The notes under the pieces: model-generated
Seen by the model: only the letters and a program-made list of their open reading frames with translations
Told to the model about the DNA's origin: nothing
Databases searched by the model: none
Source of the DNA: Acidobacteriota bacterium
GTDB taxonomy: Bacteria > Acidobacteriota > JAAYUB01
Assembly (NCBI GenBank): GCA_016935015.1
Contig: JAFGRT010000122.1
Coordinates: forward strand, 76,310 to 140,309
Length of the DNA stretch: 64,000 bases
Direction: 5' to 3'
In this document: piece after piece, positions 1-48,237 of the stretch
Layout: each line of letters opens with the position of its first letter
Numbering within the stretch: the stretch's first letter is position 1
Translations under genes and position numbers: made by a program

Positions 1-2018
1 TTCAGGTAACTGGTGATGGAAGCGTTTTCGGATCGCTCATCGGCAGAAGTCGCCGCCCGGCGAACGGTGCTGCCGCTATCGGTGTAAGCGGCCAGACTGC
101 GCGACTGGCCGCGGGACGAATAGTCAGAAGCCGATGGAGAGGGCTCCTTTCGTTCTTTGCTGCGTGTTGTCGAACTGGAAGATTGCGAGCGGGACGAGCT
201 GGAACTGGACTGGCTGCGGGTGCTGGACTGCGAGCGCGTGGTGGTGGAACGGGATTGGGAACGGGTGGTGGTGGTCGAGCCGCTGCCGGCACTGCGTGAA
301 CTGGACGAGACTCCCGAGCGATTTCCGGACGTACTGCGCGAGGAAGAAGAGACCGAGTCCCTGCTTCGCACGTTACTCGGAGTGACACTCGAGCGACCGG
401 ACGAGTAGCGCTGAATATCCGTGCCTGACCGTGACGTTACGCTGGGTTCTGAGACCCGACGGGAACGGGACCGATCCTGCACATTGTCTTGACTGACGGC
501 CGGCCGGCCGCGGTTCAGTGACTCGTTGGAGGAATACACCCCGCCGGTGCGAGTGGTCGCGGAGCGGTTGCTGAACGAGGCGCTGTTCCGGCTTCGGTCC
601 GTGGATGAAATGGACGGCGTGGCTTGCCCCCGATTGTTCTCGGTACTCAGGGACCTGGAACGTCCGCTGCTGTCCGGCGATGGGGTCAACCCGCCAGCCG
701 ACCGGGTTCGGGTGTACTCCCGCTGCTCTGCCCGGGCCGGATCCACCTTGGGAACGGTCTGCACCATCCGCTCACGCTGGAACAACTGCCGGGTGACCTG
801 TTCATCCGGTCGGAAGATCGTTGCCGCTTCGCTGCGGGCCTGGGTTCTCGAGATGGCATTGCCGCTGTAAATTCCTCGACCAATGGGCTTCCCGCGCCGG
901 AAATCATCTTCATTCACATAAGTCACGGCGTCGCTGTGTCGGCCATTCGCCAGGTTGTAGTAGTTGTTGACGGTGACGTAGTTGTTCTGGATGAAGGTTC
1001 GATGATGTCCCCAGCCGTGATAGTAGCCGTAGTAATAGTCGCCCGGTCCCAGGGGCAACCAGCCGACATAGCCGTAACCAATGCTGAATCGCACCAGTCC
1101 GGGTGACCAGTGGTGAATGCCCCAATAATTCCCGGGCATCCAGACCCAACCGAAAGAATGGTGATGGTGCCAGCGGCCGTAATGATACGGCAGCCAGCCC
1201 CACGGATCATAGGAGATCCAGGTCCAGCCCCAGCGGTGCGTGTACCGCCAGTAGCCGTAACGGTAGGGTGCCCACCCCGCAACGTACGCCGTGGGGGCCC
1301 AGCAATAGCCGTAATCAGCAATGTAATACCAGCGTCCGTGACTATCCAGATCATAGGCCCCGTAACGCACCCCCATATCTTCGGGCAGATAGCGCTTGGA
1401 TTCGATGGAGGCGTAGCGGGAATCCCGCCGTTCGCTCCAGTTGTCGAAGGCATCCATCCGGTCGGCGTTGCCCTGGACGAACTTGGTGCCATCGGGCGGA
1501 ATGAACAGCCGTCCGTTCTCCCTGACTTGCCGGTTGACGCTGTCGTTGATGAATCGGGCTTCACCGTAGCGAACGATGAGCTCCACGGCTTTATCCTGCA
1601 TGACATTGATCCGGTAAACCCCGGAATCCTTCATGACAACTTCCCCGAGGGGGGTACGGATGAGGTAGTCCACATCGCTGCGCACGTTGACAATCAGTTC
1701 ACCCATGGGAAATTCGACATAGACATAATCCATATCCAGACGCACGAAGGACAGTTCGCTGAACTGGTTCAGACGCAGGAACGAGCCGTCGTCGATCTCT
1801 ATCTCCAGCAGACCGTCCCGGTCCAATACCAACCGATCATTGACCTGCAGGGGCAAATTGACATCCACCGTGCTCCATCCGGTGGTGCCGGCTTCCTGCA
1901 TGCTGACATCTCCATCCACATAACTGACACGTGGAATACGGAGAACATCCTCACCCGCCAGGCAAAAAGAAAGGACCAACATACTCATCAACATGTTCAG
2001 GACGAATCTTTTTGCCAT
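1..2018 (-). CDS. Secreted FecR/DUF6600-like protein (3'-partial, runs off window). It has a signal peptide and a W/Y/G/H-rich repeat region followed by a ~250-aa Ser/Arg/Thr-rich low-complexity tail. It is not in the supplied ORF track.
   Basis: Minus-strand ATG at 2018, preceded by AGGAGGAGAACA (Shine-Dalgarno) and an in-frame TGA at 2033-2031. I read the frame codon by codon and found no stop down to position 3. N-terminus MAKRFVLNMLMSMLVLSFCLAGEDV is signal-like. Repeats of the WAPYRYGYW / WGWLPYHYGRW type follow. The listed plus-strand ORFs 624..1106 and 1110..2087 are its antisense shadow in the same codon register. Confidence 0.6.
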   Translation of the reverse strand, partial: MAKRFVLNMLMSMLVLSFCLAGEDVLRIPRVSYVDGDVSMQEAGTTGWSTVDVNLPLQVNDRLVLDRDGLLEIEIDDGSFLRLNQFSELSFVRLDMDYVYVEFPMGELIVNVRSDVDYLIRTPLGEVVMKDSGVYRINVMQDKAVELIVRYGEARFINDSVNRQVRENGRLFIPPDGTKFVQGNADRMDAFDNWSERRDSRYASIESKRYLPEDMGVRYGAYDLDSHGRWYYIADYGYCWAPTAYVAGWAPYRYGYWRYTHRWGWTWISYDPWGWLPYHYGRWHHHHSFGWVWMPGNYWGIHHWSPGLVRFSIGYGYVGWLPLGPGDYYYGYYHGWGHHRTFIQNNYVTVNNYYNLANGRHSDAVTYVNEDDFRRGKPIGRGIYSGNAISRTQARSEAATIFRPDEQVTRQLFQRERMVQTVPKVDPARAEQREYTRTRSAGGLTPSPDSSGRSRSLSTENNRGQATPSISSTDRSRNSASFSNRSATTRTGGVYSSNESLNRGRPAVSQDNVQDRSRSRRVSEPSVTSRSGTDIQRYSSGRSSVTPSNVRSRDSVSSSSRSTSGNRSGVSSSSRSAGSGSTTTTRSQSRSTTTRSQSSTRSQSSSSSSRSQSSSSTTRSKERKEPSPSASDYSSRGQSRSLAAYTDSGSTVRRAATSADERSENASITSYL

Positions 2019-2076
2019 TGTTCTCCTCCTTCAAAAACTTCGCTCACTTATTCTGATCCGAAAACGAATCTAAAGT

Positions 2077-3105
2077 TCAGTTTTTAGAAGATTTTTTCCA
2101 CAATTTGCGTCCGATTGCGGCAGCGATTCTGTCAATATCCAACAAAAGGGTGGGCAGATCGGCGGGAAACATGGACTGGTCACCATCCGACCAGGCGATG
2201 GAAGGTTGCGGGTGGATCTCGATCATGACGCCGTCGGCGCCGGCGGCGACAGCGGCGCGAGACATGGCCGGCACCAGTTCGCGGCGACCGGTGCCGTGGC
2301 TGGGATCGACGATAACGGGCAAGTGGGTTTCTCGTTTCAAGAACGGGATCGCGCTTAAATCCAGGGTGTTGCGGGTATGATCAGAGACGGTCCGAATACC
2401 TCGCTCACACAGAATGACGTTGCGATTGCCGCTGATGACGATGTACTCGGCCGCCATCAGGAACTCCTCAAGGGTGGCCGCCATACCCCGCTTGAGAAGG
2501 ACGGGTTTGCCCAGCTCACCGACGGCTCTGAGTAGTGAGAAATTGTGCATGTTGCGGGAACCGATCTGAATGACATCCACGATATCGGCCAGCAAGCGCA
2601 GACAGCGATCATCCAGGGCTTCAGTGACCAGCAGCATCCCCATGTTCTTTAACTCCCGAAGGATGGAAAGGCCACTCTCTCCCAGTCCTTGAAAAGAATA
2701 GGGGGAAGTCCGGGGTTTGAAAAGCCCGCCCCGGAAAAATACCAGACCGCTCTTTTGCATGAGAGTCGCCAGTTCACGAGCGATGGGTTCCGATTCGATG
2801 GCGCAAGGACCGGCGATGACATGCACATATTCGCCGCCGATGAGCACATCGGCGAAAGCGATGGTGGTATCGGCAGGATGATAGCGGCGGGACGTAAGCT
2901 GGTAGGGGGTTCCCAGCCGGAATTGATGGGTGACCAGGGCGCTTTCCGCCAGCAAGGTGGCGGCTCGGTCGGATGGATTTTCGGTGATCAGCAAATGACT
3001 TTCGTCGAATTTCACCAGATAACTCTCGACTCCCTCTTTCCGCAGTCGTCCGCGTAAGGTATCGATTCGCTCGGCGTCGGCATAATTGGCAAGTTTGCAA
3101 ATCAT
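2077..3105 (-). CDS. aroF: 3-deoxy-7-phosphoheptulonate (DAHP) synthase, class I-beta, with an N-terminal ferredoxin-like/ACT regulatory domain
   Basis: 342-aa ORF. The C-terminal catalytic barrel carries KPRTSPYSFQGLG and RNMHNF motifs typical of Thermotoga/Bacillus-type DAHP synthases. The ~90-aa N-terminal extension is regulatory. Confidence 0.85.
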   Translation of the reverse strand: MICKLANYADAERIDTLRGRLRKEGVESYLVKFDESHLLITENPSDRAATLLAESALVTHQFRLGTPYQLTSRRYHPADTTIAFADVLIGGEYVHVIAGPCAIESEPIARELATLMQKSGLVFFRGGLFKPRTSPYSFQGLGESGLSILRELKNMGMLLVTEALDDRCLRLLADIVDVIQIGSRNMHNFSLLRAVGELGKPVLLKRGMAATLEEFLMAAEYIVISGNRNVILCERGIRTVSDHTRNTLDLSAIPFLKRETHLPVIVDPSHGTGRRELVPAMSRAAVAAGADGVMIEIHPQPSIAWSDGDQSMFPADLPTLLLDIDRIAAAIGRKLWKKSSKN

Positions 3106-5655: not shown

Positions 5656-5960
5656 GACAACACCTGCAGGTTTTGTTCTCGGGCAGGCTTACCTTGCCCC
5701 ACCGCTTCCGGTGAAAACAGAACGGTCTGAACGATGGCAGCTGTCTCGCTGCGATCACACAATACAATCGGAAGGAATTCCGGTGATTGCGGGCGATCGG
5801 ATATTCGGTCCATTTTCGAAATTCATTGTAATGAATGGATGAACCTGCGGTCAACAACAAGTGTACGATTTAAAAAAATAGACCGGATGCCAACCGAATC
5901 CGCTTGTCAGTCGTATTATGGAATAGAGCGCCTGGCTGACATAGCAGAGAGGGGTACGAT

Positions 5961-6204
5961 CATGGGACAGAGCCTCCCGGGAATACCAAAAGACCTACTG
6001 CTCCATCGTATTATGGACTACCTGGAGCTGCTGAATGAAAGTGATCGAAAGATGTTCATTATGAGGCATTACCAGGGACGATCCGAATCGGAGATTAGTC
6101 GCTCCCTGAAAATTTCGGCCCGTAAGGTACACCGTTCTCTGGATCACTCCTCCCGTCGTATGTTCAGGCATCTGCGTTCTCTTCGCCAAAAACTCTGTCA
6201 CTAG
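5961..6204 (+). CDS. Small stand-alone sigma-70 region-4 (HTH) protein. No region 2 is present, so this may be a sigma-factor fragment.
   Basis: The C-terminal ~60 aa (LLNESDRKMFIMRHYQGRSESEISRSLKISARKVHRSLDHSSRRM) match ECF sigma region 4.2. The upstream part of track ORF 5734..6204 has no region-2 signature. An internal ATG at 5961 follows GAGAGGGG. Confidence 0.4.
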
Positions 6205-13097: not shown

Positions 13098-13952
13098 CTA
13101 ATGCTTTTCCCTCGCGTCCGGTGACAGGAAATCAGTAATGGTGGGCAGGCTGTTCTCCAGATATTGACGGTATTCAATCCGGCGATATTCCGGCGGCGGC
13201 TGGAATTCCGCCGGTTCGCCGTCCCATTCGTGGATATCACGGGTAACCTTTTCATAGACCGCACTCCCCCGGCGATATTCGACGGAATAGATTTCCAGGC
13301 CGGTGGCGAACAGTTCAAGCAGCCGCGCCTGAATGGCCTGCGCCAGCAAATAATCGTCGCGGCCGCTGAACTCCCTGGCGAAAACGGATGTGACGGCATG
13401 AAACTGACGGAGCACCGGCAGGTATTGATCCAGCGGGAGATAATTTCCCGGTCGAATGGAATCGTCCAGCCAGATCTCGTGGATCAATTCCTTGCCGTAC
13501 AGCAGGCGATACTTCAGGCAATCGCGGCCCCGGTTCTTTTCCCGTTGGTGATAATCAAGCTTGATGCCGGGCAGAAATGAATTGTCTGTTTCATCCATCA
13601 TCGCCTGCTCGGCGAGATGATAGGTTTCCCGCACTTTCCTGGTGAGCTGTGTGATTTCCCGTCGCATCTCGGCCAGTGAGGCATCGATATCCCCCCCATA
13701 CCAGGTGCGGGTGGCGTGATCGATCAAAAAGATTTTGTTTTCATGGATGTTCAATACGAGAGCGCCATCCGGGGTGTTCTCCGACCAATGGCCCTGCCAC
13801 CAGCGATGAACGCTCTCCTCGCTGTATTCAATGCCCTCGCCCAAGCTGCGGACGGTTACGGTGAATTCGAGGCCTTTCTCGGCAAGACCCGACACCGGCG
13901 AAATACAAAGCCACACCAGCAAACCCACCATCATCCAATAATATCTATTCAT
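13098..13952 (-). CDS. Hypothetical secreted protein (signal peptide, then ~260 aa of unknown function)
   Basis: Trimmed to the ATG at 13952 (MNRYYWMMVGLLVWLCISPVSGLA, a classic signal peptide) with AAAGGA upstream. The upstream extension in the track overlaps the nitroreductase gene. Confidence 0.55.
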   Translation of the reverse strand: MNRYYWMMVGLLVWLCISPVSGLAEKGLEFTVTVRSLGEGIEYSEESVHRWWQGHWSENTPDGALVLNIHENKIFLIDHATRTWYGGDIDASLAEMRREITQLTRKVRETYHLAEQAMMDETDNSFLPGIKLDYHQREKNRGRDCLKYRLLYGKELIHEIWLDDSIRPGNYLPLDQYLPVLRQFHAVTSVFAREFSGRDDYLLAQAIQARLLELFATGLEIYSVEYRRGSAVYEKVTRDIHEWDGEPAEFQPPPEYRRIEYRQYLENSLPTITDFLSPDAREKH

Positions 13953-13962
13953 GCTAATCCTT

Positions 13963-14553
13963 TCAGGAGTGATAATCCGGAGCATCCGGCGCGCGGAAAT
14001 CGTTCCATGATACGATTTCCACCAGCTGTTTTCGACGCAAATCGTGGTCGACCGGTTCATCGAGCCGGATGCCTTCGTCCGGGTAACCGGCCACCAGCAA
14101 GGCCAGGATGGTGTAAGCCGGAGGAATGTGCAGCAGACGGCGGATTTTCTTTTCGGAAAACCAGCCGATCCAACACGACCCAAGGCTCAACTCGGTGGCC
14201 ATGAGACACATGTGCTCACCGGCGATGGCCACGTCAAGGCGGTGGCAGTCCTTGTCGATCCATTGGGCCGCCTGGTGGATCAGTGGATGGGGCCGGCCGC
14301 AGAGGACGAACACCAGGGGAGCATCGGCCATCCATTTGTTGATCCGTGTCCCTGCCGGCGCGCACAGAGCCATTTCGCGGATCAGGGCCGGCCGGTCCAC
14401 CGTGACGATATGCCAAGGTTGCTGGTTGCAGGCCGAGGGAGCCAGTCTCGCCGCTTCCAGGATCAGCGCCACCTTCTCCGGTTCCACCGTTTGTGGCCGA
14501 TAGCTCCGCACACTGCGGCGCCGCCGCAGCAGGTCCAAAAAAGCGCTTTCCAT
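13963..14553 (-). CDS. Nitroreductase-family protein (FMN-dependent)
   Basis: The RRSVRSY...APSACNQQPWHIV nitroreductase fold signature is present. The ATG at 14553 is preceded by AAGGAGGA. Confidence 0.75.
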   Translation of the reverse strand: MESAFLDLLRRRRSVRSYRPQTVEPEKVALILEAARLAPSACNQQPWHIVTVDRPALIREMALCAPAGTRINKWMADAPLVFVLCGRPHPLIHQAAQWIDKDCHRLDVAIAGEHMCLMATELSLGSCWIGWFSEKKIRRLLHIPPAYTILALLVAGYPDEGIRLDEPVDHDLRRKQLVEIVSWNDFRAPDAPDYHS

Positions 14554-28698: not shown

Positions 28699-28932
28699 TG
28701 GGTTTTCCCGTTGCCCTTTTTCTGTTACCGCACGACGACCAATCTGCTTGCGAGCCGGACAACAGGTGTCTCAGTGTTGCCAAGAGATCACCCCGTTGTC
28801 TGACAATCGGGGGGCATTCCACCTCCTTCCGACCTCTTGTATTCTAGCCATATGCCGGAGTAATTAAAAGGACAAATGTCTTTTCTCCATCCGATGCATC
28901 TAGTATAATAACAACCTTTGAGAGGTGCCCTT

Positions 28933-30186
28933 ATGTTCGATCGAGGAAAACTCATCATCATCCTTCTCTCGGCGGTGGTGGTATTGTATACCGTCGTTGG
29001 CGGTTTTCTCGGCAAGGCCATTGCCGAAGACGAAACTTTCAAGAATCTGTCCATCTTCCAGGACATTCTGAAAAAAATCTCCCGCGAATACGTAGAACAC
29101 CCGGAAATGACCCATCTGAAACATGGTGCATTGGAAGGGTTGGTTCAAGGGACGGACTTTTTCTCCAGCTTCCTAAGTCCCGAGGAGTACCGGTTCGTGC
29201 GGGAGAGAATGACGGCCGTGGGTGAGACCGGTCTGATCCTTTCCCCCCGCACCGGGTATTACCGGATCATGCAGGTTCTGCCCGGCACACCTGCCGCGAA
29301 GGCCGGCCTGTTGCCGGGGGAAATCATCGAGGAAGTCGACGACGTCGGCATCAGTGAAAAGACATACATTTACACCCAGGCCTTTCTGCGCGGCCAGCCC
29401 GGCTCCTCGGTAAAACTGGGCATTTCCCGCGGCCGCGAGGAAGAACTGTTCGAAGTCACCCTCAAACGGGCACCGCTCGTCGCAGTGCCAGTGGAGACCA
29501 AAATCCTGCGGCCGGGCATCGGCTATCTGCGGTTGCTGCAGATTCACAGTGCCTCGTTGCCGGAGGTAGAGAAAGGGTTGAAAACGCTTGTGAACAGTGA
29601 TGTAAAGAAACTGGTGCTGGATCTGCGGGGCTGCAGCAACGGTGAACCAGCCGCGGCGATCACCATCGCCGACATGCTCATCGACGAGGGCATCATCACC
29701 ACCCAGAAGGGCCAAAGTATAGCTGATACAACATTTACTGCATCCCCCGAGAAGACTTTGTTTCAGGGGCCCATCGCCGTTTTGACCAATGGCTACACCA
29801 ACGGCGCTGCCGAAATCATTGCCGCCGCCCTCCGCGAGCGCTCCGATGGCACCGTGATTGGACAGAAAACATACGGCACCGCCTCGGAGCAGAAATATTT
29901 CGAGCTGGAGGATGGCTCGGCCATTTACCTTACCTATCTCATCTATCATTCACCGGCGGGGGATCCCATCATGGCCGAAAAATTCTCGAACTCCGGCGTC
30001 AAGCCCGAAGTTAAATCACCAGAAGAGGATTTCGCCCTGTCCCTCTACATCGACTATGAAATGGCTACGGGCGATGAGGCGCAGGAATTTTACAAAAAAT
30101 ATATCGATACAGTCTATCAACGCCAGCTGGAAAAAGCCGTCGAGGTGCTGGAGACGGACGCCCAACCAATCGAAAAAACCGCCTGA
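28933..30186 (+). CDS. S41-family C-terminal processing peptidase homolog (PDZ + S41 fold), apparently lacking the catalytic Ser/Lys dyad
   Basis: N-terminal TM, PDZ region, and an S41 core. Aligning GPIAVLTNGYTNGAAEIIAAALRERSDGTVIGQKTYGT to E. coli Prc FSASASEIFAAAMQDYGRALVVGEPTFGKG places Gly at the Ser430 position and Thr at the Lys455 position. Confidence 0.7.
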   Translation: MFDRGKLIIILLSAVVVLYTVVGGFLGKAIAEDETFKNLSIFQDILKKISREYVEHPEMTHLKHGALEGLVQGTDFFSSFLSPEEYRFVRERMTAVGETGLILSPRTGYYRIMQVLPGTPAAKAGLLPGEIIEEVDDVGISEKTYIYTQAFLRGQPGSSVKLGISRGREEELFEVTLKRAPLVAVPVETKILRPGIGYLRLLQIHSASLPEVEKGLKTLVNSDVKKLVLDLRGCSNGEPAAAITIADMLIDEGIITTQKGQSIADTTFTASPEKTLFQGPIAVLTNGYTNGAAEIIAAALRERSDGTVIGQKTYGTASEQKYFELEDGSAIYLTYLIYHSPAGDPIMAEKFSNSGVKPEVKSPEEDFALSLYIDYEMATGDEAQEFYKKYIDTVYQRQLEKAVEVLETDAQPIEKTA

Positions 30187-30235
30187 ACCACACTCGCGGA
30201 GTCTGCCACCTGCCAACCCAGGAACCGGTCGTGAC

Positions 30236-31018
30236 ATGATTTGGAATTCATTCGAAAAAATCATCGAACCCGATTCGCCCGAAGCGGAGATGCTGGCGCG
30301 GATTGATCCCCAACGAATTCCCCGGCATGTGGCCGTGATCATGGATGGAAACGGCCGCTGGGCCGCGGCCCGCAGCCTGCCCCGCATCGAGGGGCATCGC
30401 GCCGGTGCGGATTCCGTCAAGGAAATCACGGAAACTTCGGTGCGCCTGGGTGTGCACTATCTCACCCTCTACGCCTTCTCCGTCGAGAACTGGAAACGGC
30501 CGATCACGGAGGTCAACGAGCTGATGCGGCTCTTGCGGCGTTATGTCCGGGAAGATCTGCCGACCCTCATGAAACACAAGATTCGGTTGAAGGCTTTGGG
30601 CCGCCTTCATGAACTCGACTACAAGACCCGGACGCTCGTGGAAAAAGCCATTCACCATTCCCGCGACAACACCGGCCTACAGCTGAATATCGCTCTCAAC
30701 TACGGCGGACGGACCGAACTGGTGGACGCCATGCGCGCCTTGGGTCGCCTCTGCACCGACGGCGGGCTGAAACCCGAAGATATCGACGAATCCACCATCG
30801 GCCGGCACCTGTATACTGCCGGCATCCCCGAACCGGATTTGCTGATCCGCACCAGCGGCGAATATCGCATCAGCAATTTTCTGTTGTGGCAAACGGCCTA
30901 CACCGAGTTTTATTTTACCCCGGTGCTCTGGCCGGATTTTCGTAAAATTCATTACTTCGAAGCCATTATCGATTTCCAACAGCGGGAGCGCCGGTACGGT
31001 GGCGTGAAAAACGTCTGA
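30236..31018 (+). CDS. uppS: Ditrans,polycis-undecaprenyl-diphosphate synthase
   Basis: HVAVIMDGNGRWA and the C-terminal RYG motif are present. Trimmed from track ORF 29858..31018. Confidence 0.9.
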   Translation: MIWNSFEKIIEPDSPEAEMLARIDPQRIPRHVAVIMDGNGRWAAARSLPRIEGHRAGADSVKEITETSVRLGVHYLTLYAFSVENWKRPITEVNELMRLLRRYVREDLPTLMKHKIRLKALGRLHELDYKTRTLVEKAIHHSRDNTGLQLNIALNYGGRTELVDAMRALGRLCTDGGLKPEDIDESTIGRHLYTAGIPEPDLLIRTSGEYRISNFLLWQTAYTEFYFTPVLWPDFRKIHYFEAIIDFQQRERRYGGVKNV

Positions 31019-31032
31019 GTTCATAACACAAC

Positions 31033-31842
31033 ATGTGGAAACGAATCCTGTCAGCTCTGGTTCTCATTCCCGCCGTTCTCGCCATCATGGTCTGGGCTCC
31101 GCTCTGGCTTTTTACCCTGGTGGTTTATCTCATTTGCCTGCTTGCCTTTCATGAATTTATCCGCATGGGGCGAAACATCTTTACCGGCTATCGTTTCGGC
31201 CCGGTTTATATACCGGCCGTCCTGGCGGGCGGGGTGGCCATCTATCCCTGGATCGCCGATCATCGCCTCATGGCCCTGCTGGCTTTTTTCCTCATGGCCG
31301 GCGTCACCAGCGTGCTGCTAGCTTCGTGCGTTGAGGAAATCATGACCTTGCTGGCCTGGCCGTTGCTGGGTTTTGTTTACATCTATATCCTTTTTTCCTA
31401 TGTTGTGGATATCCGGTTTTCCTTTGCTCCGGAGAAAGGGCTGCTGTTGCTGCTCTTCTTTCTTCTCATCCAATGGGTCGGCGACACGTTTTCCTATCTC
31501 ACGGGGATGGCCTTCGGCCAACATCGTCTCGCCCCGGCCATCAGCCCCAAAAAGACCCTGGAGGGCACCATCGGCGGATTGGCGGGGAGCGCCTCCGTCG
31601 GCTGGCTGCTGACCGTAGTCGTTCTGACGGACGCCTCACCTTGGCTAGGTCTCCTGTTCGGGCTTCTGGTGGGCGGTTTCGGCCAGTTGGGCGACCTGCT
31701 GGAATCCCAGCTGAAAAGAACCTGTAAAGTCAAAGATTCATCCAATCTCATACCCGGTCACGGAGGTGTTCTGGACCGTCTGGATTCCCTGATATTCACA
31801 GCCCCGCTCTACTTCGGAGTGCTGAAATATTGGCTGATCTGA
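31033..31842 (+). CDS. cdsA: Phosphatidate cytidylyltransferase
   Basis: CTP_transf_1 signature (KDSSNLIPGHGGVLDRLDS). Confidence 0.85.
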   Translation: MWKRILSALVLIPAVLAIMVWAPLWLFTLVVYLICLLAFHEFIRMGRNIFTGYRFGPVYIPAVLAGGVAIYPWIADHRLMALLAFFLMAGVTSVLLASCVEEIMTLLAWPLLGFVYIYILFSYVVDIRFSFAPEKGLLLLLFFLLIQWVGDTFSYLTGMAFGQHRLAPAISPKKTLEGTIGGLAGSASVGWLLTVVVLTDASPWLGLLFGLLVGGFGQLGDLLESQLKRTCKVKDSSNLIPGHGGVLDRLDSLIFTAPLYFGVLKYWLI

Positions 31843-31864
31843 GACCGGTGCGACGGAACGGCAG

Positions 31865-33037
31865 ATGAAAGCGATCACCATATTAGGTTCAACCGGCTCT
31901 ATCGGCACCAGCGCCCTCGACGTCATCCGCTCCCAGCGGAACATCTTCCGGGTGGCCGGCCTGGCCGCCGGCCGGAACATGCGGGCACTGGCCGAACAAA
32001 TCCGCGAATTCGAGCCGGAATGCGTTTCGGTGCTGGATGATGTTGTCGCCACCCAACTGCGTTCGCTGCTGGCTGCGGCGGATTACCCCCCGGACCGCAC
32101 CGAAATCCTGAGCGGTGAGGCCGGAACCTGCGCCGTGGCGGCTCTGCCCGCCGCGGAGGTGGTGATTTCCAGCATGGTGGGTTTTTCCGGTCTGAAACCG
32201 ACCTATCACGCCATCCAGGCCGGCAAGGATATCGCCCTGGCCAACAAGGAGGTCCTGGTGGCGGGCGGGGAATTCATCACCCGGGCCGCCCGACAATGCA
32301 ATGTCAGGCTCGTCCCTGTCGACAGCGAACATAACGCCATTTTTCAATGTCTCCGCGGCGAGAGCACGTCCGAAATCAAGACCATTTGGCTGACGGCCTC
32401 GGGCGGTCCCTTTCGCACTACGCCCCTTGACCAGCTGGTAACGGTGTCGCCGGAGGAGGCCCTCCGTCACCCCACCTGGCGGATGGGACCGAAAATAACC
32501 ATCGATTCGGCCACCATGATGAACAAAGGGTTGGAAATCATCGAGGCTCACTGGCTGTTTGGCCTACCGGCCGATGCCATCCAGGTGGTGGTGCATCCCC
32601 AGTCGACCATTCATTCCATGGTGGAGTTTCAGGACGGATCGTTTATCGCCCAGCTGGGGGTCACCGACATGCGGTTGCCCATCCATTACGCCCTGCACTA
32701 CCCGGCCCGGGCGCCGTTCAACGGCCGGCGGATGGATCCCTTCACCCTCGGCGCGCTGGAATTCCATGCCCCGGATTTCGAAAAATTCCCCTGCCTCACC
32801 CTCGCTTACCAGGCGCTGCGTCAGGGTGGATCCCTGCCCACAATTCTCAACGCGGCCAATGAAGTGGCGGTGGCGGCCTTCCTGCGCGCAGATATCCGGT
32901 TCACGGACATCCCTCGGATTATCGGCGACACCCTGGCGGCCCTGGCCGGCCAAGAGGCCCGAACCCTGGAAGACATTCTCCATCTGAACGAACGCTCCCG
33001 GCAGAGCGCTTACCGGATCGTTCGGGATCTCAAATGA
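31865..33037 (+). CDS. dxr: 1-deoxy-D-xylulose-5-phosphate reductoisomerase
   Basis: N-terminal GSTGSIG NADPH motif. 390 aa. Confidence 0.9.
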   Translation: MKAITILGSTGSIGTSALDVIRSQRNIFRVAGLAAGRNMRALAEQIREFEPECVSVLDDVVATQLRSLLAAADYPPDRTEILSGEAGTCAVAALPAAEVVISSMVGFSGLKPTYHAIQAGKDIALANKEVLVAGGEFITRAARQCNVRLVPVDSEHNAIFQCLRGESTSEIKTIWLTASGGPFRTTPLDQLVTVSPEEALRHPTWRMGPKITIDSATMMNKGLEIIEAHWLFGLPADAIQVVVHPQSTIHSMVEFQDGSFIAQLGVTDMRLPIHYALHYPARAPFNGRRMDPFTLGALEFHAPDFEKFPCLTLAYQALRQGGSLPTILNAANEVAVAAFLRADIRFTDIPRIIGDTLAALAGQEARTLEDILHLNERSRQSAYRIVRDLK

Positions 33038-33139
33038 AACGGCGCCTTCACGGTGTCAACCGATCCGGGGTTTATCCGGGACCCGGTTTGTGATAAGTTC
33101 TCCATTGTGCCGAATCCAGAATGAGGAAACAAAGCCCCC

Positions 33140-34720
33140 ATGGATACCTTGATTGCAATTTTTTCGTTTGTCATCATCCTTGGCGTCATCATCTTCCTGC
33201 ATGAGCTGGGGCATTTCATCGCCGCCCGCTTGTTCCGGATTCGCGTGGAAACATTCTCCCTCGGTTTCGGCAAGCGGCTCTGGGGTTTCGAAAAAAACGG
33301 CGTGGATTATCGCATCAGCATGATCCCCTTGGGCGGTTATGTGAAGATGGCGGGTGAATACTTCGGAGAATCCCGCGGCGGCGACCCTGACGAGTTTCTC
33401 TCCAAGCCGCGCTATCAGCGGGCCATTGTCTCCTTTGCCGGTCCCTTCATGAATTTTCTTCTGGCCGTCTTTCTTCTGACGGCGAACAACGTCATCGGCG
33501 TAGACATGCCCGGTTTCACCCGTGAACCGGCCCGCGTGGGCGACATCGTCGCCGGTTCGCCGGCCGCCGCCGCCGATTTGGAAGTCGGCGACGAGATCAT
33601 CCGCCTGGGAAACGACGCCGTCACCGACTGGCAGGATTTCCAGCTCGAGGCTATTTCGGCGGCCAATGAGACGGTCGCCCTTGAGATCCGTCGCCATGGC
33701 CGCCTTATGCAGACGGAGATCCGCATCGGCGAGGACCTTCAGGATCCGTACAATATCTCTGGTATCAAGCCTTTCGTCCCGGCCAGGATTCAGCAGGTCG
33801 CGCCGGATTACCCGGCCGCCGCGGCCGGTCTGCAGAGTGGTGACGTCATCGCGTGGGTATCCCACGACAATGAATCGGCCAGCGGCTACTTCCACATCTT
33901 TCGTTTCATCTGGAACCGTCCCGGCAAGAAACTCACCTTGCAGGTGCAGCGGGGGGAGCGGACGCTGGAAAAGGTGGTCTATTCGGCGGCGGAAGTCGTC
34001 TCCGTGCCGGAAGGTTCTCCGGCGCAGGGCATGGGCCTGCAGGTCGGGGACATCATTCAGTCTCTCACCCGGGATGACCGCGTCGCCGACCATTTCCCGG
34101 AAATCGTGCAGTGGCTGCACGAAGACTGGTCACCGACCATGTCCCTGGTCGTCCTCCGGAAAAGTAAACCGGTCACCCTGGACGTCCCCCCGACGGCGGC
34201 CGATACCCTGTCCGCGGCCTTGGTGCATCCGGAACAGGCGGAGCCAGAGTCGACGTTCATGGTCCGCGGTGTACTGGGATTCAGTTTTGACTTCGCCTTC
34301 TACAAGGAACAGTATCCCCTTCCCCAGGCCTTGGTGAAATCATTCCGCGACAATTATGAACTGGTACTCCTGACCTACCGGATCCTCGGCAAGGTGCTCA
34401 CGGCGGAACTGTCCCTGAAACAATTCCAGGGACCCATCGGCATCGCCCAAGCGACGGGTGAGGTGGTTAAAACAGGGAAATGGACCAACATATTCGCCTT
34501 TAGCGCCTTGATCAGCATCAACCTGGCCATTCTGAACCTGCTGCCTATCCCGGTGTTGGACGGCGGCATGTTGTTGCTGCTCCTGATCGAGATGGGCCTG
34601 CGCCGTGATCTGCCCCTCCGTCTCAAGGAGCGGATCATCCAGATCGGTTTCCTGATCCTCATCACCTTCATGGCCGTGGTGGTGATGCTGGATATTATGA
34701 AATCCTTCGGGGGAACATAG
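33140..34720 (+). CDS. rseP: RIP zinc metalloprotease RseP (site-2 protease) with tandem PDZ domains
   Basis: HELGHFIAA HExxH motif in TM1, a C-terminal LDG motif, PDZ regions. Confidence 0.85.
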   Translation: MDTLIAIFSFVIILGVIIFLHELGHFIAARLFRIRVETFSLGFGKRLWGFEKNGVDYRISMIPLGGYVKMAGEYFGESRGGDPDEFLSKPRYQRAIVSFAGPFMNFLLAVFLLTANNVIGVDMPGFTREPARVGDIVAGSPAAAADLEVGDEIIRLGNDAVTDWQDFQLEAISAANETVALEIRRHGRLMQTEIRIGEDLQDPYNISGIKPFVPARIQQVAPDYPAAAAGLQSGDVIAWVSHDNESASGYFHIFRFIWNRPGKKLTLQVQRGERTLEKVVYSAAEVVSVPEGSPAQGMGLQVGDIIQSLTRDDRVADHFPEIVQWLHEDWSPTMSLVVLRKSKPVTLDVPPTAADTLSAALVHPEQAEPESTFMVRGVLGFSFDFAFYKEQYPLPQALVKSFRDNYELVLLTYRILGKVLTAELSLKQFQGPIGIAQATGEVVKTGKWTNIFAFSALISINLAILNLLPIPVLDGGMLLLLLIEMGLRRDLPLRLKERIIQIGFLILITFMAVVVMLDIMKSFGGT

Positions 34721-34729
34721 CCGCGCATC

Positions 34730-35824
34730 ATGTCCGCCATACACCGTCGCAAGACACGAACCGTCGCCGTCGGCTCCCTGACCATCGGGGACCCCGCGCC
34801 TGTCACTGTACAATCCATGACCAATACCGACACCCGGGACGTGACGGCGACACTGTCCCAAATCCGCCGGCTGGAAGGGGTCGGCTGCGAGATCATACGA
34901 TTGGCCGTCCCTGATCAGGCGGCGGCCGATGCCCTGCCGGCCATCCGGGCGGAGGTGAAAACGCCGCTGGTGGCCGATATTCATTTCGATTACCGCCTGG
35001 CTCTGGCCGCCTTAGACGCGGGCGTGGACAAGCTGCGCCTCAACCCCGGCAACATCGGCGACCCGCCGCGCGTCCGGCAGGTGGTCTCAGAAGCAAAACG
35101 AAGGCGGATCCCCATCCGCATCGGTGTCAACGCCGGCTCCCTGGCCCGCCCGCTTCTCCGCAAATACGGCCACCCCTGTGCCGAAGCCTTGGTGGAGAGC
35201 GCCCTCCAGCATGTGGCCATCCTCGAAGATCTGAATTTTCGGGACATCGTCATCTCCCTCAAAGCGTCGAACGTGGCCATGTGCGTGGCCGCCTACCGCC
35301 TCATGGCCCGGCAGACGGACTACCCTCTCCATCTGGGCATCACCGAGGCCGGCACCTTCCTGACAGGCACCATAGCCTCGGCCGCCGGCATCGGCGCTCT
35401 TTTGCTGGACGGCATTGGCGACACCATCCGCGTGTCGCTCACGGCGCCGCCCGAAGAAGAGGTGCGGGTCGGTTTCCGTCTTTTGCGGGTGCTGGACGTC
35501 CGCCGGCACGGGCCCCGTTTTATTTCCTGTCCCTCCTGTGGCCGGACCACTGTGGACCTCGTGGGTCTTGCCAATGCCATCGAAGAGCGACTGGCCTGGG
35601 TGACGCAACCCGTCACCATCGCCGTCATGGGCTGCGAGGTCAACGGACCGGGTGAGGCCGCCGAGGCGGACATCGGCTTGGCTTGCGGCCGCAAGGCATC
35701 GCTGATATTCCAAAAAGGGGCGGTAGTAAAAAAAATAACCAACGATCACCTGGTGGAGGAGTTTGTGCGCGAGGTGGCGGTGTTTCTCCACAAACGGGAG
35801 GAGTCGTCCTCATGCGGGGAGTAG
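34730..35824 (+). CDS. ispG: 4-hydroxy-3-methylbut-2-en-1-yl diphosphate synthase
   Basis: GcpE family, with C-terminal CPSCGR...CxxNG Fe-S cysteines. Confidence 0.9.
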   Translation: MSAIHRRKTRTVAVGSLTIGDPAPVTVQSMTNTDTRDVTATLSQIRRLEGVGCEIIRLAVPDQAAADALPAIRAEVKTPLVADIHFDYRLALAALDAGVDKLRLNPGNIGDPPRVRQVVSEAKRRRIPIRIGVNAGSLARPLLRKYGHPCAEALVESALQHVAILEDLNFRDIVISLKASNVAMCVAAYRLMARQTDYPLHLGITEAGTFLTGTIASAAGIGALLLDGIGDTIRVSLTAPPEEEVRVGFRLLRVLDVRRHGPRFISCPSCGRTTVDLVGLANAIEERLAWVTQPVTIAVMGCEVNGPGEAAEADIGLACGRKASLIFQKGAVVKKITNDHLVEEFVREVAVFLHKREESSSCGE

Positions 35825-37159: not shown

Positions 37160-37452
37160 TCCGTTGGATCAAGGATATCTGCCTTTCGATCTCGGCCAAA
37201 CGAAATCATATTATAGTGATCCTTGACCGTGGCATCAAGCCATGTTGTTGAGCGAACCTGTCAATTTGCGTGTTCATTGGCTTTGACTTGATTCCGGCCA
37301 TGTGCTATAAATTATCCACTCTGTCGCGTACAAGGCCGGATGCAAACAACAACACCGCATGACCACTGCTTGACTGCCCGATTCGAATATTGCACAGGCA
37401 GAAACCGGTCTGTACATGATGGCCCATGGACATCCATCGCAAGGAGAATCAT

Positions 37453-38709
37453 ATGAACAAACCCGGTTTTCGCATTCCTCTCGCCCGCCTGGAAGAGGTC
37501 AATGAATTCATGTCTCTCGAAGTGAATCCCCTCACCGAGAGACTGCTGGGCGTCGTGGAAAAATTCGGCGGCGTCGAAGCCATCCGCGAAAAACACACCC
37601 AGGCCGCCCGGCTGGAGACCAAGCTGCAGCGGATCAGGGAATCAGGATCGCCCTACCTGGCGGATCTGGAATGGTTGATGGAACAGCGGGAAAAGAAGGC
37701 CTTCATCTCCATGAATGACTACTACCGCAACATTCTCCAGAACCGCTATGGTGAAGTGTCATTTGCCTCAGACAACGCTGTCACGCTGGAGATCAGTTCG
37801 CTCCATTATTTTCCCTGGCTGATCACCCAGGCCAAGCGGGCCATCGCCGAGCGGGAACTGATGCCGGGCCGATTCATTCGGGTGCGTTTCATGAAGGAAC
37901 AGGAAGCGGACGGCGATCTCCTGGCGGTGACGGCGGCCATGGATATCGTGGGCGCCACCTGGGTGGAGACGCTGGACACCAAAGGTACCGACGGCGCCAA
38001 TGTCCATCTCGGCGGTCCCGAAACCATTACGGGATATTTCGGCGGACCGGGCCAACCCAATCATTATCCGCTGAAATGGGTCGAGGAGTATCTCTACTAT
38101 CACACCAACTACGGTGTCAAACAGGTATTGAACATCAATGCCGGAACGGTTCTGGTCGGCTATCTCCTCCATCAGCTCGGCATTGATATTGAGTTCAAGA
38201 TCTCCGTCTACATGGGCAACGACAATCCCTATTCCGTGCTGTGGACTCTCATGACCGCCAAGATGTTCTCCCGCGATGACGGGACGACTCCCCTCATCGG
38301 CTTCAATTTCGCCAATTCCGTGAACAACGAGACCATCGAGCTGGCGGCTTTCATTCGCAAAGAACTCGGCTTCGAAGACAAGGTCCGTTTCGAGCACCAT
38401 ATCACCGAGACCTGGAAGTCTATCGTGCGCCAGCCGTATGACCGGACGGAGGAACTGATCGAAGTGTCCCGGAAGGTGAAAAACATCAGCGCCAAACACG
38501 AGGGCGGCACACCCGATCAGGAACAACAGCGGGAATTTCCCTCGGATATCCTGACGTATTTCATCCCCAAGGAAGATGTGATCGCCGCCGGCAACATGCC
38601 GAAATTCGAACTGAACTACCTGGACAAGCATGTGGCCCTGAATCACACCGCCGCCGAGCTGATCAAGGCCGGCATTCCGGTAATCGCCGCCTGGAACCTT
38701 CACCAATAA
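37453..38709 (+). CDS. Hypothetical protein (418 aa, no family assigned), first gene of a redox cluster
   Basis: The ATG at 37453 has a perfect AAGGAGA Shine-Dalgarno 6 nt upstream (the track start at 37426 lacks one). Glycine-rich segment GGPETITGYFGGPGQPNHYPL. Confidence 0.55.
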   Translation: MNKPGFRIPLARLEEVNEFMSLEVNPLTERLLGVVEKFGGVEAIREKHTQAARLETKLQRIRESGSPYLADLEWLMEQREKKAFISMNDYYRNILQNRYGEVSFASDNAVTLEISSLHYFPWLITQAKRAIAERELMPGRFIRVRFMKEQEADGDLLAVTAAMDIVGATWVETLDTKGTDGANVHLGGPETITGYFGGPGQPNHYPLKWVEEYLYYHTNYGVKQVLNINAGTVLVGYLLHQLGIDIEFKISVYMGNDNPYSVLWTLMTAKMFSRDDGTTPLIGFNFANSVNNETIELAAFIRKELGFEDKVRFEHHITETWKSIVRQPYDRTEELIEVSRKVKNISAKHEGGTPDQEQQREFPSDILTYFIPKEDVIAAGNMPKFELNYLDKHVALNHTAAELIKAGIPVIAAWNLHQ

Positions 38710-43892: not shown

Positions 43893-45938
43893 CTATTCCA
43901 ATCGGTAGGCCGTCAGGAGGTGGTCCTCGTACGCCGGTGTCAGTTCCAGGATCGTCTCGACGTAATGACTGTTGCCGTAAAAGGGAACGATGATCCAGCG
44001 GAAACCGGCCTGGCGGAGCATTCGACGCATCGTTTCGGCGTCCGGGGCCGACGGCGATTCATAGGGATAGAGCACACAAAACAATCCCTCGCTGGCCGGC
44101 GGATCGGCAAAATACGGCCGGATCCCGACGGTGGTGCTATGCTGCGGACGACCCGCCGGCCCAGGATCGGCCAGTGGCCGGAGAAGCACCGTGTCGCCGG
44201 CGCCGCGCCGGATCGAGGTCGACAGCCGGAACCGCTGCTCTGCCGCATCCGCCACTTCCAGCTCCGTCACCAGCCCCCCCCTGGCCCGGCGGCGCTCGCC
44301 CAGCCAGATGTCATGGGGCCGGCTGGTTTCGATGCACAGACGTCCGGGGCCCTGCAGGTAGCCAAGGGCGACGAAAGTGGATTCTTCCGCCATGGCGGGA
44401 GCGGCGGCCAGGATGTCTGCCGGCCGGCCGGTGCCGTAATGATAATAATCGTTTTCGGCGATGATCTCGCGGATAGGGCTGACCTCGTACTGCTCTAGCG
44501 CAGACTGCGGCACTCGGTTGACCATGCCGTCCCGGCCCATGACTTTCCGGTGGTGAACGGTCTGGAAATACAGGGCGTCGGCGAAATAATGCAGATCCAT
44601 GACACCTTCATCCGGGCTGGAGTTGTGCTGTAGCTGGGTGTAAAACGGGCTGACCGGCAGAGGGTTCATGACGAACGGTACGCCCAGACTTTCGCCCACC
44701 AGTAGTCCACAGACCAGGGTGGCGAAGCCCGCCATCAATTTATCCGATCGCAGCCGGCCGCTGAGGTGATGGACACCGGCGGCCAAAAAAAGGCACCCGG
44801 CGAACCAGGTCATGATATGGAAGCGGATGGGTGAGCGGATGATGCCGGCGCCGGGGATCCCGTCGGCCAGCAGGCCATATGGCAGGGTCACCGACTCATA
44901 GAGCTCACCGCCCGTCCGCAGGTGATACCCCAGGGAAAGGACGAAGAACATTACCAGCCACCCGGTGAAAACACATCGGATCTCCCGCCGGCAGGTGAAC
45001 CAGCCCACGCCGGCCAGCAGCCAGGCCGTCCAGGGGATGAAGTTCTCGGGCGTAACGTTGTTGGCCCGCCAGTGGCCGCCGCCCGAGGCCACCAGCCGGC
45101 CGAAAAGGGACCGCTCGCCGGGGATGACGAACGACGCAAGGTCGGCGTTATCCCGCCGGGCGATGGTCTCAGCCGGCAGGCCCTGACCGGCTTCCCACAC
45201 CATACCGCTGATCAGCGGGCTGAGCACCAGGACGCTGATGAGGATGATGACGGCCGTTCCCCGCGCCCGCAGCAGCAAGAAGCGGATGTCGCACCGTGCC
45301 CGGTACAGAATCAGGAGGAGTGATGCCATCACGCAAAACACAAAATAGTACCAGCTGGTCAGGGCGATGAGGACCAGCCAGCCGGCGGCGGCCAAGGCCT
45401 TCCGGATCCGCCATCCCGCCTCATCCGCCGCCAGCAGGGACTGGACAAAGAACGGGATCCACTGGTAGTGCATCAGGTTGAGGTGCCCGGCTTCGAGCTT
45501 GGCAAAATGATAGGGGCAGAAGGAATAGGCGGTTCCGGCCACCAGGGCGCCCCAGAAACCGAATCCCAGGTAGCGGCCCAGCCGGAACATTCCCAGGCCG
45601 GCCAGGACGAAACTCAGCAGGGCGGACAGGTTGTACACCGTCACCAGCGACAGGAAAGGCTGCAGCGGAATCGAGGCCAGAGTGACCGGTAGATTCCAGG
45701 TATGCAGATAATTGCACAGTCCGGCGGGGAAATACACGAAGTTATGGCAGAACGGATGGATCAGGCTCACTAGGCTGTATTTCAGCCACCACATGTTCCA
45801 GGTGAAGAGAGAGGCGTCCCCGGCGCCGATGAGACGGTCGGACAAATGGACGACGGCGGGATAGGTGGACAGGACGGCCAGAACCAGATAGCCCGTTGTG
45901 GCGACGGTTAGCTCCCGCTTCTCGGTGGCCCGTTTCAT
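43893..45938 (-). CDS. Large polytopic membrane protein, GT-C-fold glycosyltransferase-like (ArnT/PMT/YfhO-like); hypothetical
   Basis: 681 aa, more than 10 predicted TM helices, and a C-terminal soluble domain. Its start abuts the repeat-rich region. Confidence 0.5.
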   Translation of the reverse strand: MKRATEKRELTVATTGYLVLAVLSTYPAVVHLSDRLIGAGDASLFTWNMWWLKYSLVSLIHPFCHNFVYFPAGLCNYLHTWNLPVTLASIPLQPFLSLVTVYNLSALLSFVLAGLGMFRLGRYLGFGFWGALVAGTAYSFCPYHFAKLEAGHLNLMHYQWIPFFVQSLLAADEAGWRIRKALAAAGWLVLIALTSWYYFVFCVMASLLLILYRARCDIRFLLLRARGTAVIILISVLVLSPLISGMVWEAGQGLPAETIARRDNADLASFVIPGERSLFGRLVASGGGHWRANNVTPENFIPWTAWLLAGVGWFTCRREIRCVFTGWLVMFFVLSLGYHLRTGGELYESVTLPYGLLADGIPGAGIIRSPIRFHIMTWFAGCLFLAAGVHHLSGRLRSDKLMAGFATLVCGLLVGESLGVPFVMNPLPVSPFYTQLQHNSSPDEGVMDLHYFADALYFQTVHHRKVMGRDGMVNRVPQSALEQYEVSPIREIIAENDYYHYGTGRPADILAAAPAMAEESTFVALGYLQGPGRLCIETSRPHDIWLGERRRARGGLVTELEVADAAEQRFRLSTSIRRGAGDTVLLRPLADPGPAGRPQHSTTVGIRPYFADPPASEGLFCVLYPYESPSAPDAETMRRMLRQAGFRWIIVPFYGNSHYVETILELTPAYEDHLLTAYRLE

Positions 45939-47712: not shown

Positions 47713-48237
47713 ATGCGGAGGATAGCGATTGCCGGCTCACTGATCCTGCTGCTCCTGGCCGCACCGGCCGCGGCGGCGCCGGCCAAGAAGGTGGTCAAGG
47801 GCGACAAGAAGGAGTTGCGGGGGGTCACCCGCATCTACGTCCAGGCCAATGACAAGGAGTATCGCCGCATCATCGAGACGTACATCATGGAGGAGCTGCG
47901 GGGGATGTCCATCGTTTCCCTCATGTCCGAGGCCGATGCGGTGCTGACGTTCACCTACGAGAATCCGGAACGGAAGAAATCCACCCAGTTCAAGTACAAG
48001 GGGCACAATCCGCGGAAAATGCGGGTGGAGGAGTACGATTACGACAATTTCATCATGCAGGGCCGGGGGGAGATCTTCAAGGTCACGGGGTATGCCCCGG
48101 ACTCCCAGAAAGTGACGCTGCGCCTGCTGGCGGAATGGGAGAGCGGCAAGATCAACCTGGCCGAGGTGACGGACCTGCAGATCGCGCCCCTCGACTTCGC
48201 CAGGGAATTTGTCAAGCTGTGGCGCAAATACAACTAG
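47713..48237 (+). CDS. Hypothetical secreted protein (signal peptide) containing an EEYDYDN motif
   Basis: ATG with an AAGGGG ribosome-binding site. Signal peptide MRRIAIAGSLILLLLAAPAAAAPA. 174 aa. Confidence 0.6.
   Translation: MRRIAIAGSLILLLLAAPAAAAPAKKVVKGDKKELRGVTRIYVQANDKEYRRIIETYIMEELRGMSIVSLMSEADAVLTFTYENPERKKSTQFKYKGHNPRKMRVEEYDYDNFIMQGRGEIFKVTGYAPDSQKVTLRLLAEWESGKINLAEVTDLQIAPLDFAREFVKLWRKYN

Follow-up and report, generated by a model that had tools for sequence, protein, structure and literature searches.

A predicted exported FecR-like/DUF6600 protein with a long polycationic tail in an Acidobacteriota bacterium

Introduction

Acidobacteriota count among the commonest bacteria of soils; little is known of the biology of their envelope and matrix. 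The closest described relatives of the gene considered here belong to the Pfam family DUF6600, annotated as 'FecR domain-containing protein' in Acidobacteriota and some Desulfobacterota, where the full architecture of signal peptide, FecR-like domain, DUF6600 module and Arg-rich tail is common. Relatives with solved structures carry the FecR fold in the periplasm. The present study concerns a minus-strand gene at the left edge of a 64-kb stretch of the Acidobacteriota contig JAFGRT010000122.1 (hereafter the window, i.e., the whole stretch of DNA that was analysed). The gene is a typical, ordinary member of this catalogued but unstudied family. We propose, with a probability of roughly 45%, that its product is an envelope or matrix protein whose folded head would dock on a partner and whose polycationic tail would bind polyanions, with expression from an ECF (extracytoplasmic function)-type promoter in its clade; the mechanism is one that we infer.

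Results

Translation of the minus strand over positions 1 to 2033 gives a stop codon, the residues RRRT, an M at 2018 and then 672 stop-free codons to base 3. A Shine-Dalgarno sequence, GGAGG, can be read at 2025 to 2029 on the same strand, 6 nt 5′ of ATG 2018. The first-pass annotation of this DNA had described just such a partial gene of ~670 residues, open to the window edge, and every peptide string that it quoted is found in our translation. The coding sequence in the window (3 to 2018, minus strand) comprises codons 1 to 672 of 863. The remaining 191 lie beyond the left edge on a public Logan contig of 16 kb (L001), which we located by looking for exact copies of the protein encoded next to the gene on its upstream side (window 2077 to 3105). 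L001 reaches 615 bases past the edge, is identical to the window over positions 1 to 2018 and differs from it at 5 of 13,105 overlapping bases. Thus, the leftward extension that had been suggested for obtaining the C-terminus yields a protein of 863 residues ending in ...SSKSSTSSGRRRR, i.e., GRRRR. The window copy lacks the final 191 residues and holds 232 residues of a tail that runs to 423 in full, in place of the ~250 estimated earlier.

The gene had also been noted as missing from the six-frame list of open reading frames (ORFs). This is true, because the ORF tool does not report frames that continue past the end of its source; the gene's absence is a listing artefact and not biology. The ORFs that the list does contain here lie on the plus strand (624 to 1106 and 1110 to 2087), and one could take these for the real genes and the minus-strand frame for the artefact, as the earlier annotation had allowed. 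However, neither of them, nor an alternative-frame ORF on the minus strand (923 to 1606), has a single Pfam match, whereas the minus-strand frame described above carries a Pfam domain and has thousands of homologues. Its GC pattern across first, second and third codon positions also agrees with that of the neighbouring genes (third-position GC, GC3, 0.69 to 0.74 against 0.67). Similar overlapping antisense ORFs turn up again at 53 of the 80 homologous loci, a pattern that shadows of a conserved GC-rich gene should produce. The Pfam, homologue and GC results already refute the artefact reading, to which we assign next to no probability.

A word-indexed search with the head of the protein returned 420 proteins, the best at 60% identity, which bears out the claim that the gene is real. 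An exhaustive search with the same head found 13,785 cluster representatives at E ≤ 1e-3, including 2,702 at E ≤ 1e-30, the clusters being drawn at 50% identity. Among GTDB species genomes, the family occupies at least 599 loci, overwhelmingly in Acidobacteriota (Bryobacterales, Terriglobia, Aminicenantes) and concentrated in those of soil and sediment; a minority of loci are labelled Deltaproteobacteria/Desulfocapsaceae and other taxa. Several copies may occur in one genome. A 5-Mb genome has two tandem FecR/DUF6600 paralogues (L008, 5100 to 6827 and 7001 to 9124), and one metagenome-assembled genome (JAUYBU01) has two separate family loci (L038 and L068); within the 64-kb window, no paralogue of the gene was found.

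The folded head runs from residue 23 to about 435. An AlphaFold2 (AF2) model of residues 1 to 440, built on a 116-sequence alignment, has a predicted local distance difference test score (pLDDT) of 87.8 and a predicted template-modelling score of 0.87. Behind the signal peptide lies an all-beta domain (residues 23 to 215; 1374 to 1952, minus strand) modelled with pLDDT above 90. In a Foldseek search of the PDB, it matched the putative anti-sigma factor BDI_1681 (4m0h/4m0n, E 7.5e-8) and the cell-surface signalling domain of PupR (CCSSD; 6ovk_R, E 8.3e-6), the predicted model superposing with probability 1.00 and a root-mean-square deviation of 2.2 to 2.8 over 129 to 141 columns. A search with the family profile likewise retrieved 4m0h from sequence (E 0.002). 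The FecR profile PF04773 has no match in the query at E ≤ 1, and a precomputed match exists for 93 of 120 listed homologues (among five looked-up loci with the domain listed, four label it 'weak'); 'FecR-like' is thus the right term for the fold. The beta-rich FecR-like N-domain that had been claimed therefore holds as a fold, and of the two profile searches proposed for the protein, the one for DUF6600 gave a match and the one for FecR gave none in the query itself. Matches of the family profile to RecA were rejected, as they were sums of 5-bit matches repeated along artificial RecA concatemers.

Since this N-domain has the FecR/PupR fold, the protein could instead be a FecR-type signalling component, its domain sensing a signal at an outer-membrane transducer and controlling an ECF sigma factor. 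Two features would suit such a role: a small gene for a protein with sigma-70 region 4 alone, found at a distance of 3.7 kb and kept in synteny in close relatives, and the ECF-type promoter-like motif of the query gene (see below). Nevertheless, the beta domain follows straight after the signal peptide, and the protein has neither a cytoplasmic anti-sigma domain nor a transmembrane helix. The structural alignment covers only ~130 to 140 of the ~213 residues of the solved sigma-regulator domains (template-modelling score, TM, 0.53). Furthermore, no fecI- or fecA-like gene is adjacent, no neighbour is conserved in 80 loci, and the small sigma-like protein falls below every curated cut-off. A signalling role of the FecR-like domain is unlikely, and the full FecR-type signalling model appears very improbable to us.

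The DUF6600 module follows (residues 216 to 345; 984 to 1373, minus strand), and its Pfam match (PF20245) covers residues 223 to 326, i.e., nt 1041 to 1352, at 94.6 bits against a cut-off of 27 (E 4.4e-27; model positions 3 to 101 of 102). Its composition (Tyr 17%, Gly 16%, Trp 12%, His 9%) includes lineage-specific His runs, in agreement with the W/Y/G/H-rich repeat region of DUF6600 type recognised earlier. The AF2 model resolves the module into four beta-hairpins with an exact 27-residue period (228-242, 255-269, 282-294 and 309-322), formed by strands 228-233/237-242, 255-260/264-269, 282-286/290-294 and 309-314/317-322. They share the signature G-x-W-x9-W-x-P-x6-8-W-x-P, in which the G, W and P are invariant columns of the family alignment. 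Foldseek found no PDB fold match for the module (best E 1.6). As far as the model goes, this Trp-hairpin head apparently represents a new, unsolved fold. A match of the model of residues 1 to 440 to 5ix9, a 76-residue 'cell surface anchoring domain' solved by nuclear magnetic resonance, was too marginal to retain (E 4e-3, 68 columns, TM 0.72 on the target).

The head is completed by an extension (residues 346 to 440; 699 to 983, minus strand), delimited from the AF2 model and the orthologue alignment. Here, disordered loops (336-349 and 382-399) lie between the conserved elements VTYV..DDFR, FRxD...RxLFxR and PKVDP, and conserved elements up to about residue 435 are modelled with high confidence within the same predicted head. 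Beyond it, a second AF2 model (residues 216 to 672) gives the DUF6600 module a pLDDT of ~90 and, from about residue 390, values below 50 without secondary structure, save one short helix. Structure and disorder prediction, which had been recommended as checks, thus give a confident head and a disordered tail.

The tail spans residues 441 to 863, of which 441 to 672 lie in the window (3 to 698, minus strand). Its 423 residues are 36% Ser, 14% Arg, 10% Thr and 7% Gly, with a net charge of +45 and only 6.6% hydrophobic residues. Accordingly, the earlier description of an S/R/T/Q tail holds for Ser, Arg and Thr, and Gln is minor (10 of 423 residues). Over the tail codons, the true frame has no stop and the other five frames have 7 to 16; GC3 (0.69) resembles that of neighbouring genes, all six Ser codons are used in the proportions of background genes, and Tandem Repeats Finder found no repeat in the gene. 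The tail is therefore translated sequence, not slippage or junk. Its likeness to SR proteins extends to composition and stops short of RS-dipeptide runs: RS and SR dipeptides number 55 against 43.6 in shuffles (1.26x), and the basic residues are spread, falling about every 6.5 residues and more evenly than in shuffles (spacing variance 20 against 35, p ~0.009). The tail is not an SR-protein RS domain.

A comparison of 195 family tails of at least 100 residues places the query tail in context. Net charge is positive in 194 of them, with a median of +0.07 per residue, and 96% of their basic residues are Arg. At least two basic residues stand among the last five in 162 tails, against 39 expected from composition, and many tails end in GGRGGRGR-type strings. 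Lengths range from ~120 to more than 540 residues (median 259, maximum 543). The partner residues vary by lineage, from S/G, N/S/Y/H and P/A/Q to G-rich, RGG-like compositions. The query tail is among the longest, and its Ser/Thr content (46%) ranks 191 of 195. 'Very unusual', as the tail had been called, may hold for exported proteins at large but does not apply within the family. In ~1 Mb of DNA examined, every ORF with such a tail was a DUF6600 gene. That the charge sign, the basic end and the even spacing are kept while the partner residues change argues that the tail is selected for charge. Judged from these sequences, a polycationic tail is the hallmark of the family, maintained as charge and composition.

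Alternatively, the head alone might be functional. The tail would then bind nothing and be either a low-complexity appendage under neutral drift or an entropic spacer. A search with the tail only gave 8000 candidates and none at E ≤ 1e-3, and the tails are unalignable even among orthologues, apart from one island and the basic end; their wide range of lengths and a composition that drifts with lineage are likewise what this alternative predicts. On the other hand, the charge sign, the depletion of hydrophobic residues, the basic end and the even charge spacing are kept family-wide. Moreover, the island persists inside the tail (residues 502 to 520, NRGRPAVSQDNVQDRSRSR; 459 to 515, minus strand), with the pattern [NSG]RGRPxV[ST]...QDxSRSR, a candidate short linear motif. 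It aligns across all eight clade orthologues of the alignment (47 to 60% identity to the query), is weaker in the most distant (P0011) and has unalignable tail sequence on its flanks; the motif scan covered twelve clade sequences. We regard a tail devoid of any binding role as unlikely.

Another possibility is that the protein is released or displayed at the surface, where its cationic Ser/Arg/Tyr tail would stick the cell to silica, clays or iron oxides, or nucleate silica. Peptides of similar make-up are CotB1p (SGRARAQRQSSRGR) and SB7 (RQSSRGR), which are C-terminal and bind silica ionically with a nanomolar dissociation constant (PMC11818168). The conserved basic end and the concentration of the family in soil and sediment Acidobacteriota would be in keeping with such a function. 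However, the likeness is compositional only, sequence homology was not found, and neither a secretion signal beyond Sec nor biomineralisation genes nearby were detected. This mineral-binding alternative is, in our estimate, decidedly unlikely.

Residues 1 to 22 (1953 to 2018, minus strand) form a signal peptide of classical Sec type, recognised by eye and by hydropathy, with MAKR, a 16-residue hydrophobic core and CLAG; cleavage probably occurs after A21 or G22. The hydrophobic 12-mer has a Kyte-Doolittle (KD) hydropathy of 2.4, two basic residues precede it, and AF2 places a helix at residues 2 to 19. A similar N-terminal segment is present in 235 of 251 family members, in line with the signal peptide first proposed. 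The Cys of this segment was considered as a lipoprotein site and rejected, since the F at position −1 leaves no lipobox. A hydropathy scan found no second hydrophobic segment in the protein (maximum 19-residue KD 0.71 after residue 30), and the whole protein should thus lie on one side of the membrane. Taken together, the protein is predicted to be Sec-exported, and the structural features named in the first-pass annotation are all confirmed.

Upstream of the gene, a promoter-like GAACTT-N16-TCAGA of ECF/sigma-E type lies at 2052 to 2078 (minus strand). Its 3′ end is 33 nt from the ATG, and part of it coincides with the TGA of the neighbouring DAHP (3-deoxy-D-arabino-heptulosonate 7-phosphate) synthase gene. 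It is near the E. coli sigma-E consensus, GGAACTT/TCAAA (PMC1312014). Promoters of this type have their −35 and −10 blocks ~16 nt apart. Within the 64-kb window, the motif occurs once, and an A/T-rich stretch precedes it. The form GAAC[TA][TAC]-N16/17-TC[ACT][AG][AT] is present in all six orthologous upstream regions (the window, L002, L005, L091, L092 and L093), where it ends 30 to 36 nt 5′ of the ATG with unrelated spacers; in two of these loci it is clear of the neighbour's stop codon. Between 1900 and 2400, neither a sigma-70-type promoter nor a terminator was found. Hence, a putative ECF-type promoter appears to read the gene in the clade of 47 to 60% identity.

The gene lies beside those of DAHP synthase, RecO and MgtE. 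The DAHP synthase immediately upstream (2077 to 3105, minus strand) is of type I-beta, scores above the NF006421 cut-off and is separated by a 58-nt gap; it takes the same position in all five orthologous loci examined (47 to 60% identity) as well as in the window. DAHP synthase is the first enzyme of aromatic amino-acid synthesis, and here it stands next to the gene of a Trp/Tyr-rich protein; this pairing may be mere synteny. LPS (lipopolysaccharide)-heptose genes lie upstream in five orthologous loci and in the window, and LptFG follows one or two genes downstream in three of the four orthologous loci with downstream sequence seen. In a sister lineage (43 to 51% identity), a gene with the uncharacterised GWxTD domain (PF20094) lies directly downstream of the DUF6600 gene or near it (L007, 9013-9786, overlapping the DUF6600 stop codon; L090, 8005-8775; L089, 2166-4229). 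Among 80 distant loci, the sole recurrent neighbour was an FHA-type regulator (13 loci), which we attribute to lineage synteny; the other recurrent clusters were the gene itself or shadow ORFs.

The window is otherwise ordinary chromosome, with LPS-heptose genes, Wzt, glycosyltransferases, citrate lyase, MlaFED, MltG, Ctp and UppS-CdsA-Dxr-RseP-IspG. The last of these belong to a conserved envelope-biogenesis cluster at 28918 to 35824 (plus strand), comprising Ctp (an S41 protease), UppS, CdsA, Dxr, an RseP-like M50 site-2 protease and IspG; the RseP homologue would fit ECF sigma-E-type signalling in the organism. The region-4-only gene mentioned above (5734 to 6204, plus strand) encodes a small protein with a Sigma70_r4_2 match (E 1e-7) and no detectable region 2; in close relatives, the syntenic gene is called as 80 to 173 residues. 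It was considered as the cognate ECF sigma factor and set aside, being below all NCBIfam cut-offs and without a detected region 2.

Farther along, about 2 kb without convincing ORFs (45,950 to 47,900) contains at least eight diverged copies of a ~35-nt element with the consensus ATCGAYTAC.ATTACGAC.ACGACAACGACAGCGAT, in both orientations (forward at 46468, 46811, 47231, 47406 and 47496; reverse at 46090, 46130 and 46889). The same region has a 136-nt direct repeat (46328-46463/47090-47225, 76% identity). Rfam and tRNA scans gave no match in the window, this region included. Three large ORFs have no Pfam match: 43893 to 45938 (minus strand, 681 residues), 37426 to 38709 (plus strand, 427 residues) and 13098 to 14183 (minus strand, 361 residues). 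The 681-residue ORF has many hydrophobic segments at its start and looks like a membrane protein.

Discussion

We favour an envelope or matrix protein that would work as follows. After export, the head would dock on a specific envelope partner, either through protein-protein contact of the FecR-like domain or through aromatic hairpins stacking on a glycan, in the manner of the hairpin repeats of cell-wall- and choline-binding proteins. The evenly charged Arg/Ser tail could in turn make multivalent electrostatic contacts with polyanionic polymers, candidates being peptidoglycan, LPS core or phospholipid head groups, acidic exopolysaccharide and extracellular DNA. As a result, envelope or matrix material would be tethered or cross-linked. 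The sigma-E-like promoter would place the gene in an envelope-stress or envelope-maintenance regulon. A link to the envelope is favoured by the near-constant position of the sigma-E-like motif in the six orthologues and by the LptFG and LPS-heptose genes around the orthologous loci.

Several observations weigh against this proposal. The promoter motif was defined post hoc, after it had been sighted, and is thus a lead and not proof; at 80 distant loci, it occurs five times against ~1.6 expected, a weak enrichment. The LptFG and DAHP synthase synteny is limited to the clade of at least 47% identity, and the context differs in loci at 43 to 51%. All-against-all ORF clustering of the 80 distant loci gave no conserved neighbour. 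For the hairpins, the idea that they bind glycan is only an analogy; they match neither a Pfam cell-wall-binding repeat nor a PDB fold. Sec export of a +45 tail is energetically awkward, and the final location may be periplasm, surface or medium. Finally, a literature search for 'DUF6600' found no paper or experiment on any member, and the papers retrieved for 'FecR domain-containing protein' concern, by title and abstract, topics other than this family.

A bolder version, which we consider doubtful, would make the whole FecR/DUF6600 family a hitherto unrecognised class of exported bacterial 'sticker-and-spacer' proteins. Its Arg(/Tyr)-rich, RGG/SR-like tails would gel or condense with extracytoplasmic polyanions (LPS, exopolysaccharide, extracellular DNA, mineral surfaces), the Trp-hairpin head would anchor the gel, and ECF envelope-stress control would govern it. 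If true, eukaryotic low-complexity-domain biology would have a counterpart outside the cytoplasm. The family has ~13,800 clusters, often with several copies per genome, and joins an apparently unsolved Trp-hairpin fold to a polycationic tail in an exported protein. Should the tail indeed bind envelope or matrix polyanions or minerals, these cells would have in the family a major structural component that has so far been overlooked. The conserved sigma-E-like promoter candidate offers a concrete experimental handle. The value of the present analysis lies in such family-level regularities (tail charge, basic end, Trp-hairpin fold, sigma-E-like motif) and not in this particular locus.

Among known systems, the FecR/PupR sigma regulators (6ovk, 4m0h) have the same fold as that predicted for the N-domain. 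In contrast to them, the query lacks both an anti-sigma domain and a transmembrane helix, is not linked to fecI or fecA, and shows no full match to their C-terminal STN-type subdomain. The protein is therefore not a FecR-type anti-sigma factor. Choline-binding and cell-wall-binding repeats, and the CROPs (combined repetitive oligopeptides) of clostridial toxins, are likewise tandem short beta-hairpins with conserved aromatics, at a period of ~20 residues. The query hairpins differ in their 27-residue period and their GxW...WxP...WxP signature, and they match neither these repeats in Pfam (PF01473 and relatives) nor a PDB fold, so that the analogy is functional only.

The tail has counterparts of its own kind. 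Bacillus CotB1 has a basic C-terminus, and diatom silaffins nucleate silica; like CotB1p, silaffin R5 and eukaryotic RS/RGG domains, the query tail is disordered and rich in Arg, which Ser and Gly separate, and it contains some Tyr. Unlike eukaryotic SR proteins, the query has no RNA-recognition motif (by Pfam), no RS-dipeptide runs and no sequence homology to them, and it is predicted to be exported, not nuclear. Gram-positive serine-rich repeat adhesins have long tandem Ser-dipeptide repeats, an LPXTG anchor and an accessory Sec locus. The query gene has no DNA tandem repeats, and its GRRRR end has no hydrophobic segment; SecA2/Y2 was not seen among the annotated window ORFs. Sortase and exosortase sorting signals (such as PEP-CTERM) combine a signature motif, a transmembrane helix and a C-terminal basic cluster. 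Of these, the query has the basic cluster alone; its tail is 6.6% hydrophobic, and the maximum 19-residue KD after residue 30 is 0.71.

The closest match remains the DUF6600 family itself, whose nearest members are 54 to 60% identical to the query. The query has every element of the family architecture, namely a signal peptide, a FecR-like domain, a DUF6600 module and a net-positive tail with a basic end. It is set apart from other members by a tail among the longest and most Ser/Thr-rich, by lineage-specific His runs in the hairpins and by the clade-specific RGRP...QDxSRSR island.

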